Sequence record: PP925831.1
Reading direction: 5' to 3' (one strand)
DNA length: 64,000 bases
DNA from: Escherichia phage Pinarejo
Part shown: piece by piece, positions 16,543 to 16,743 of the stretch
Numbering within the stretch: the stretch's first letter is position 1
Layout: each line of letters begins with the position of its first letter
Position numbers and translations under genes: made by a program
Notes under the pieces: generated by a model
Database searches by the model: none
Told to the model about the DNA's origin: nothing
The model's input: the letters and a program-made list of their open reading frames with translations, nothing else

Positions 16543-16743
16543 ATGGTACAAAAATTAATGGCACTTGTTAATGCCATAAAAGGTAATAAAAAACGTATAG
16601 CTTTTACTATTTCTGCTATGATAGGAATTTTACTTTGGAATTTTGTTTTATCGCCAGTTGCTATTGCTCATGGCGTTAGTATTCCAGTAGTTACTCTTGA
16701 TACATTCGTAGATTTAGCATTTGCTTTGGTTGGGTTAATTTAA
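16543..16743 (+). CDS. small hydrophobic protein, plus-strand
   Basis: 66 aa; AAAGGAGG 6 nt before ATG; convergent with gene 61, stop codons overlap. Confidence 0.45.
   Translation: MVQKLMALVNAIKGNKKRIAFTISAMIGILLWNFVLSPVAIAHGVSIPVVTLDTFVDLAFALVGLI

Follow-up and report, generated by a model that had tools for sequence, protein, structure and literature searches.

Isolated late units lie among the early genes of T4, and the late promoters of soc, gene 49 and e are established. Short phage inner-membrane proteins that act on the envelope are also known; they include Imm, Ac and the RI antiholin, of which Imm and Ac are the products of early genes. T4 lysis depends on holin T, and a highly charged, hydrophilic C-terminal tail is typical of holins. 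The class II holins and pinholins, such as S68 of phage 21, are about 65–70 aa in length and have two hydrophobic helices.

A short open reading frame (ORF) between dam and gene 61 shows likeness to these systems and has been deposited under several names. It is annotated as dam.1 in T4T (HM137666; T4Tp032, ADJ39749.1), labelled RB32ORF030w in RB51, named 'Uncharacterized protein dam.1' in UniRef, and called 'hypothetical protein' in hundreds of genomes. A literature search for dam.1, T4Tp032 and RB32ORF030w returned no paper naming the gene, and the main text of HIDEN-SEQ does not discuss the locus. T4 is a reference organism, yet its RefSeq annotation lacks dam.1: the ORF is intact at 17738..17938 of NC_000866, with nothing annotated between dam and 61. 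Studies that take their gene list from this record miss dam.1. The CRISPRi-ART guide library for T4 was designed on the annotated CDSs of NC_000866, and therefore it has no dam.1 target. Adding dam.1 to the annotation, together with the late-promoter and membrane-protein predictions described below, closes a small blind spot and provides a testable late-membrane candidate.

Identity and neighbourhood of the plus-strand ORF

We analyzed a window of 64,000 nucleotides from Escherichia phage Pinarejo (sequence record PP925831.1), in which the ORF lies on the plus strand (Table 1). The window is part of a T4-type genome of the genus Tequatrovirus. The 401 bases around it were 100% identical in phages Elenatom and ECML-123-2 and 95.5% identical in T4. 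The product matched the profile of phrog_2024 (function unknown) with an E-value of 8.1e-31 (residues 2–66 against profile positions 1–65); 12 of 12 divergent family members also matched phrog_2024. Compared with T4 dam.1, the protein is 95% identical (3 amino-acid changes), the gene lies in the same opposite-strand position between dam and gene 61, and both the GATAAATA-Shine-Dalgarno (SD) module and the TTAA stop overlap are the same. The differences are the SD spacer, which is 4 nt in Pinarejo and 6 nt in T4T, and the adjoining dam, which is frameshifted in the Pinarejo window. The ORF is an already known gene, the conserved hypothetical dam.1/phrog_2024, which is specific to the Tevenvirinae; it is an ordinary conserved hypothetical gene and not a new kind of system.

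Table 1. Coordinates of the features at the dam.1 locus (positions in the 64,000-nt window).
Feature	Position	Strand	Basis or remark
CDS, dam.1 homologue, 66 aa, phrog_2024	16543..16743	+	PHROG match; only open frame of six; pN/pS 0.16
Late (gp55) promoter variant GATAAATA, putative	16516..16523	+	Last base 19 nt before the ATG
Inferred late transcription start (+1), leader of ~14 nt	16529 (~17722 in NC_000866)	+	-13..-6 placement of the motif
Shine-Dalgarno AAAGGAGG	16531..16538	+	4-nt spacer (ACAT) to the ATG
Codons 2–18, N-terminal amphipathic basic segment, predicted cytoplasmic	16546..16596	+	AlphaFold2, charge
Terminator-like hairpin (16577..16558) and T-run, candidate terminator of the primase unit	16548..16577	-	-8.9 kcal/mol, z -2.46
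Codons 19–42, predicted TM1 with invariant W32-N33 (16636..16641) and P38	16597..16668	+	AlphaFold2, hydropathy, alignment
Codons 43–47, start of the short predicted periplasmic loop (HGVSI), invariant G44	16669..16683	+	AlphaFold2, alignment
Codons 48–66, P48 and remainder of the loop, second hydrophobic helix 52–65 with D53 and D57, predicted	16684..16740	+	AlphaFold2, hydropathy
TTAA, overlapping convergent stops of the 66-aa ORF and gene 61	16740..16743	both	Palindrome; shared bases 16741..16742
Gene 61 (DNA primase), convergent neighbour	16740..17768	-	ORF list, PHROG, relatives
dam (DNA adenine methyltransferase), divergent neighbour, 230 aa	15740..16432	-	Frameshifted

The first-pass annotation, made from the letters of the window, had described a hydrophobic 66-aa ORF as the lone plus-strand gene of its stretch, with a near-perfect SD 6 nt before the ATG and a stop codon overlapping that of gene 61. 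Direct reading agreed with the ORF list on an ATG at 16543 and a TAA at 16741..16743, and the product was hydrophobic as described (GRAVY 1.28). The isolation of the gene extends to the whole window: only 3 plus-strand ORFs of at least 50 aa that began with ATG and did not lie mostly under a longer minus-strand ORF were present in the 64 kb, and the other two (4214..4618 and 56090..56305) had neither an SD nor a PHROG match, so that dam.1 is the sole such ORF with an SD. The strong SD AAAGGAGG was found where it had been described, but its spacing had to be corrected, since a spacer of 6 nt (ATATAT) is the arrangement of T4T. A 4-nt spacer is at the short end of the workable range. The SD/ATG region was unpaired in the predicted fold, and a strong SD was kept ahead of the dam.1-type ORF in all relatives compared. 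The stop overlap was also as described, with the TAA of gene 61 read from 16742 to 16740 on the minus strand. The same 4-nt overlap was found in T4T, Mosigvirus WFL6982, VR26 (second paralogue) and Dhakavirus IME281. It is not universal, however: the overlap was 24 nt in Q7622, and the two genes were separated by a gap in EAWsc9 and KPV15.

Elenatom carries an annotation (CDS0032) for a 32-aa plus-strand ORF at 16460..16558, which lacks an SD and runs across the promoter and SD of the 66-aa ORF into its 5' end; we judged it to be probably a spurious gene call.

The minus-strand gene order at the locus is soc, 56, dam, 61, 61.1, 61.2, sp, dmd and 41. With 230 aa in Pinarejo, the dam product is shorter than that of T4T (259 aa): a single base, inserted near 15751 relative to T4T, changes the reading frame, and a 37-aa remnant ORF is left at 15627..15740 on the minus strand. 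The frameshift may reflect either true inactivation of dam or an error in the sequence. In many Tequatroviruses, dam and the 66-aa ORF are separated by a 540-bp insertion (EC128 1533..2093; approximately 16433..16515 in the window), which encodes a 186-aa minus-strand protein of phrog_8706, function unknown. At the position of 61.2, two adjacent minus-strand ORFs were present, one of 119 aa (17937..18296, phrog_4122) and one of 213 aa (18298..18939, phrog_3781), and their C-terminal ends were near-identical (...SIDDQIFNAFMN(R/K)G). This shared end, together with cross-matches between the two PHROGs, indicates that the C-terminal parts of both ORFs are paralogous.

Distribution and selection

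A tblastn search found the ORF in 697 phage records, 502 of them at 80% identity or more and 195 at less than 60%. Because gp61 at 80% identity or more was also found in 502 records, dam.1 is effectively universal in Tequatrovirus. A search with the second paralogue type returned 605 records, of which 152 were Klebsiella phages. Six genera were examined (Tequatro-, Mosig-, Gapriver-, Kanagawa-, Dhaka- and Jiaodavirus), and in each the ORF lay beyond the 3' end of gene 61, on the other strand and ahead of dam or gene 56; this slot was kept whether or not dam was present. The first-pass annotation had pointed to conservation across T-even genomes as informative, and both the reading frame and the SD were indeed kept in the relatives; in RB49 (Krischvirus), no such ORF separates gene 61 from the adjoining gene 56. 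A deep representative search recovered only 6 representatives (50% clustering) among 1.84 billion proteins. The dam.1 family is therefore narrow, with no distant annotated relative from which a function could be borrowed.

Phage VR26 encodes two tandem copies of the dam.1-type protein (1495..1692 and 1701..1901), which are true paralogues (E = 4e-8). The second copy starts 8 nt past the stop codon of the first and has no promoter motif of its own. Kanagawavirus and Dhakavirus have the second paralogue type only. No paralogue of the 66-aa ORF was found elsewhere in the 64-kb window.

The dN/dS ratio (Nei-Gojobori) was 0.07–0.15 within Tequatrovirus and 0.13–0.47 between genera, where dS was saturated. 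Variable columns were distributed over the three codon positions as 44/20/55. A comparison of nine distinct Tequatrovirus sequences gave a pN/pS of 0.16 and no stops in the annotated frame, whereas each of the five other frames contained 1–9 stops, with pN/pS values of 0.24–2.4. The frame was open at 50% amino-acid identity and below in the six genera. These substitution patterns indicate that dam.1 is a real protein-coding gene whose product is under purifying selection.

The same DNA appears to be used on both strands at the 5' end of the ORF, where the minus-strand terminator-like hairpin (Table 1) falls in codons 6–12. The hairpin was identical in T4T, and a TransTermHP terminator is annotated at the same place in phage SA21RB. 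It was absent at the Mosig-, Gapriver- and Kanagawavirus loci. A minus-strand terminator was therefore rejected as the general reason for conservation of the ORF, since it was found in Tequatrovirus only; it is plausible, judging from the sequence, that the hairpin is a genus-specific terminator of the primase unit that shares its DNA with the ORF.

Late-promoter motif and predicted membrane topology

The first-pass annotation had also noted an upstream motif resembling a late promoter without being the exact consensus, and this description proved accurate. The motif GATAAATA agreed with the T4 late consensus TATAAATA at 7 of 8 bases, the single mismatch being at -13 (G here). The consensus is placed at -13..-6, and the T at -13 is poorly conserved among T4-like phages, in which this position is mostly T or A (Nolan 2006, PMC1524935). 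Because dam.1 has G at -13, unlike the usual T or A, its promoter may be weak. The ~14-nt leader was predicted to be unpaired. A change of the promoter from GATAAATA to GATCCATA would fall outside every CDS. For a sigma-70-type promoter of the ORF, only weak matches were found, and these were no more numerous than in shuffled sequence.

The core ATAAATA occurred 8 times on both strands of the window, compared with 40.9 ± 6.3 expected from dinucleotide-preserving shuffles, indicating a 5-fold depletion. Only 3 copies were on the plus strand, and the chance that one of them would fall in the 26-nt zone before a given ATG is about 0.001 (3 x 26/64000). Six of the 8 copies were located 13–30 nt upstream of an SD and ORF on the same strand, namely those of soc, endonuclease VII (gene 49), lysozyme e (two copies), a 70-aa protein and the dam.1 ORF. 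The dam.1 unit resembles those of soc, gene 49 and e in the arrangement of (T/A)ATAAATA 13–30 nt before the ATG with a strong SD between, and in being an isolated late-type unit among early genes. It differs from them in its -13 base (G) and in its orientation: those three genes share the minus strand with the genes around them, whereas dam.1 runs against its neighbours and is convergent with gene 61. The proximal e promoter is only 13 nt from its ATG, so that short leaders have a local precedent.

In 10 of 10 lineages compared, NATAAATA was found 12–22 nt upstream of the ATG with a strong SD after it, in flanks that were otherwise unalignable. The first base of the motif varied: Tequatrovirus had G or A, Mosig- and Dhakavirus A, Gapriver- and Jiaodavirus C, and Kanagawavirus T. 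In EC128, the breakpoint of the 540-bp insertion was directly 5' of GATAAATA, indicating that the motif, the SD and the ORF have been kept as one unit. Taken from motif and position, gp55-dependent late transcription of dam.1 is strongly suggested.

The membrane topology, which the first-pass annotation had proposed for prediction, came out as a two-helix hairpin from both hydropathy and an AlphaFold2 model (pLDDT 78.8). The model contained helices at residues 2–14, 16–42 and 52–65 and a loop at 43–51. Hydropathy gave one clear transmembrane segment (approximately residues 19–42) and a hydrophobic C-terminal helix containing D53 and D57. Charge was distributed asymmetrically, with five K/R and no acidic residues in positions 1–20 and no basic residue thereafter, which by the positive-inside rule argues for an N-in topology. 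The dam.1 product is thus predicted to be an N-in helical membrane hairpin, in which the second helix, with its two Asp residues, may be interfacial instead of membrane-spanning. W32, N33, P38, G44 and P48 were invariant across both paralogue types and the six genera, A40 and G64 were nearly so, and an acidic residue was nearly always present at position 53. Conservation was thus highest in the loop and in the half of TM1 nearest the periplasm. Within transmembrane helices, an invariant Asn classically promotes helix-helix association; N33 in TM1 and the clustered conservation therefore point to self-association or to a partner membrane protein. Searches of Pfam, NCBIfam, PDB sequences and, with Foldseek, viral and PDB structures returned nothing beyond the family itself; the Foldseek result is explained by the length of the protein, since so short a helical hairpin carries too little fold information.

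Of the two readings offered by the first-pass annotation, a late-expressed small membrane protein or a transcript acting antisense to the 3' end of gene 61, the former is favoured by the selection on the protein, the NATAAATA footprint and the predicted hairpin. We consider it likely, with good confidence, that dam.1 is a real, late-transcribed gene for a membrane protein.

Proposed mechanism and alternative readings

In the mechanism that we propose, RNA polymerase containing gp55 would start late in infection from GATAAATA, with +1 near 16529. The short unstructured leader would offer the strong SD AAAGGAGG to ribosomes, and the 66-aa product would be translated. The product is predicted to insert into the inner membrane, with its basic N-terminal helix in the cytoplasm, TM1 (19–42) crossing the bilayer and a short loop in the periplasm, after which the second hydrophobic helix (52–65) would dip back into the membrane. 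The protein might then act on a late envelope event through intramembrane helix-helix contacts, either with itself or with a partner; because it has no homology to a characterised family or a solved structure, this functional step is reached by inference. Our best guess for this event is the tuning of lysis timing or another envelope process; to assign any specific function is speculative, and we regard any such assignment as rather doubtful. A broader proposal has dam.1 as an overlooked late inner-membrane factor in T-even envelope biology (for example holin triggering, lysis inhibition or some other event at the membrane late in infection) at a bifunctional locus, in which the late promoter would also yield transcripts antisense to the primase operon, whose terminator would be encoded opposite the 5' end of the ORF; this combination seems unlikely. 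Imm, Ac and the RI antiholin resemble dam.1 as short phage inner-membrane proteins acting on the envelope, but dam.1 has no detectable sequence similarity to any of them and, unlike the genes of Imm and Ac, has only a late-promoter footprint.

Three other explanations of the locus were weighed. The ORF could be spurious, its frame accidental in a non-coding gap that holds the terminator of the primase operon and the promoter of dam. The blank between 61 and dam in NC_000866 and the minus-strand hairpin inside the ORF would fit such a gap. However, the frame stays open down to 50% amino-acid identity and lower across six genera, with third-position-biased substitutions, and a hairpin confined to Tequatrovirus cannot explain conservation that is wider than the genus. 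No Rfam family was found in the gap at E <= 1. We give this explanation almost no credence. The main role of the locus could instead be that of a regulatory RNA: transcription from the late promoter would enter gene 61 at its 3' end and, through the read-through RNA or through convergence of the polymerases, turn off the primase operon late in infection, with the ORF being secondary. The convergence on gene 61 is conserved in the six genera, the two stop codons overlap, and plus-strand (T/A)ATAAATA copies at 4910 and 61575 without a downstream ORF suggest that pure antisense late promoters may exist. In addition, there was no plus-strand terminator-like site before about 21.3 kb (approximately 4.5 kb downstream), so that late transcripts could run antisense into gene 61. 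On the other hand, the encoded protein is under clear purifying selection in the sole open frame, the strong SD is conserved in all relatives, the protein is duplicated in tandem in VR26, and the ORF does not overlap gene 61 in EAWsc9 and KPV15. Untranslated read-through RNA would also be exposed to Rho termination. Since the amino-acid sequence is under selection, antisense action cannot be the main reason for the ORF, and a primarily regulatory RNA is very improbable. That the locus also acts antisense on gene 61, alongside its protein, is a tentative possibility, to which we give a minor but real chance.

The third explanation keeps the membrane protein and makes it a holin or pinholin-like lysis protein that opens holes in the inner membrane late in infection. 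In its favour, dam.1 is small, with two hydrophobic helices and a late-promoter footprint, and two of its homologues were labelled 'Holin' and 'holin family protein' by their depositors. Its size, helices and expected late expression are also those of the class II holins and pinholins. The Tequatrovirus copies, furthermore, begin with Met1...Lys4...Met6, resembling a dual-start motif. The resemblance weakens on inspection: no dam.1 member matched the holin families of Pfam or NCBIfam, the charge is N-terminal, and the protein ends in ...FALVGLI in place of a charged hydrophilic tail. Met6 lacks an SD and, outside Tequatrovirus, is not conserved; a dual start with a hairpin over the second ATG was rejected on these grounds and because the plus-strand hairpin was not significant (z -1.0). 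The gene is not beside lysis genes, the lysozyme gene e being 46 kb away, and the established dependence of T4 lysis on holin T also speaks against this reading. It therefore differs from the class II holins and pinholins in lacking an HMM match, a charged C-terminal tail, a conserved dual start and a lysis cassette. We regard a holin function as very unlikely, slightly more so than the regulatory RNA. The dam.1 protein is not a member of a known holin family, but it may still act on the envelope.

Late-promoter motifs were also observed elsewhere in the window. On the plus strand, TATAAATA and AATAAATA were present at 4910..4917 and 61575..61582, respectively, with no ORF downstream; given the strong avoidance of ATAAATA in the window, these copies could be late promoters for purely antisense RNA. 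On the minus strand, a 70-aa ORF at 57021..57233 (phrog_1826, unknown function) is preceded by an exact TATAAATA at 57258..57265, which ends 25 nt before the ATG with an SD between. From this arrangement, the phrog_1826 ORF is probably another uncharacterised late gene in the early region.
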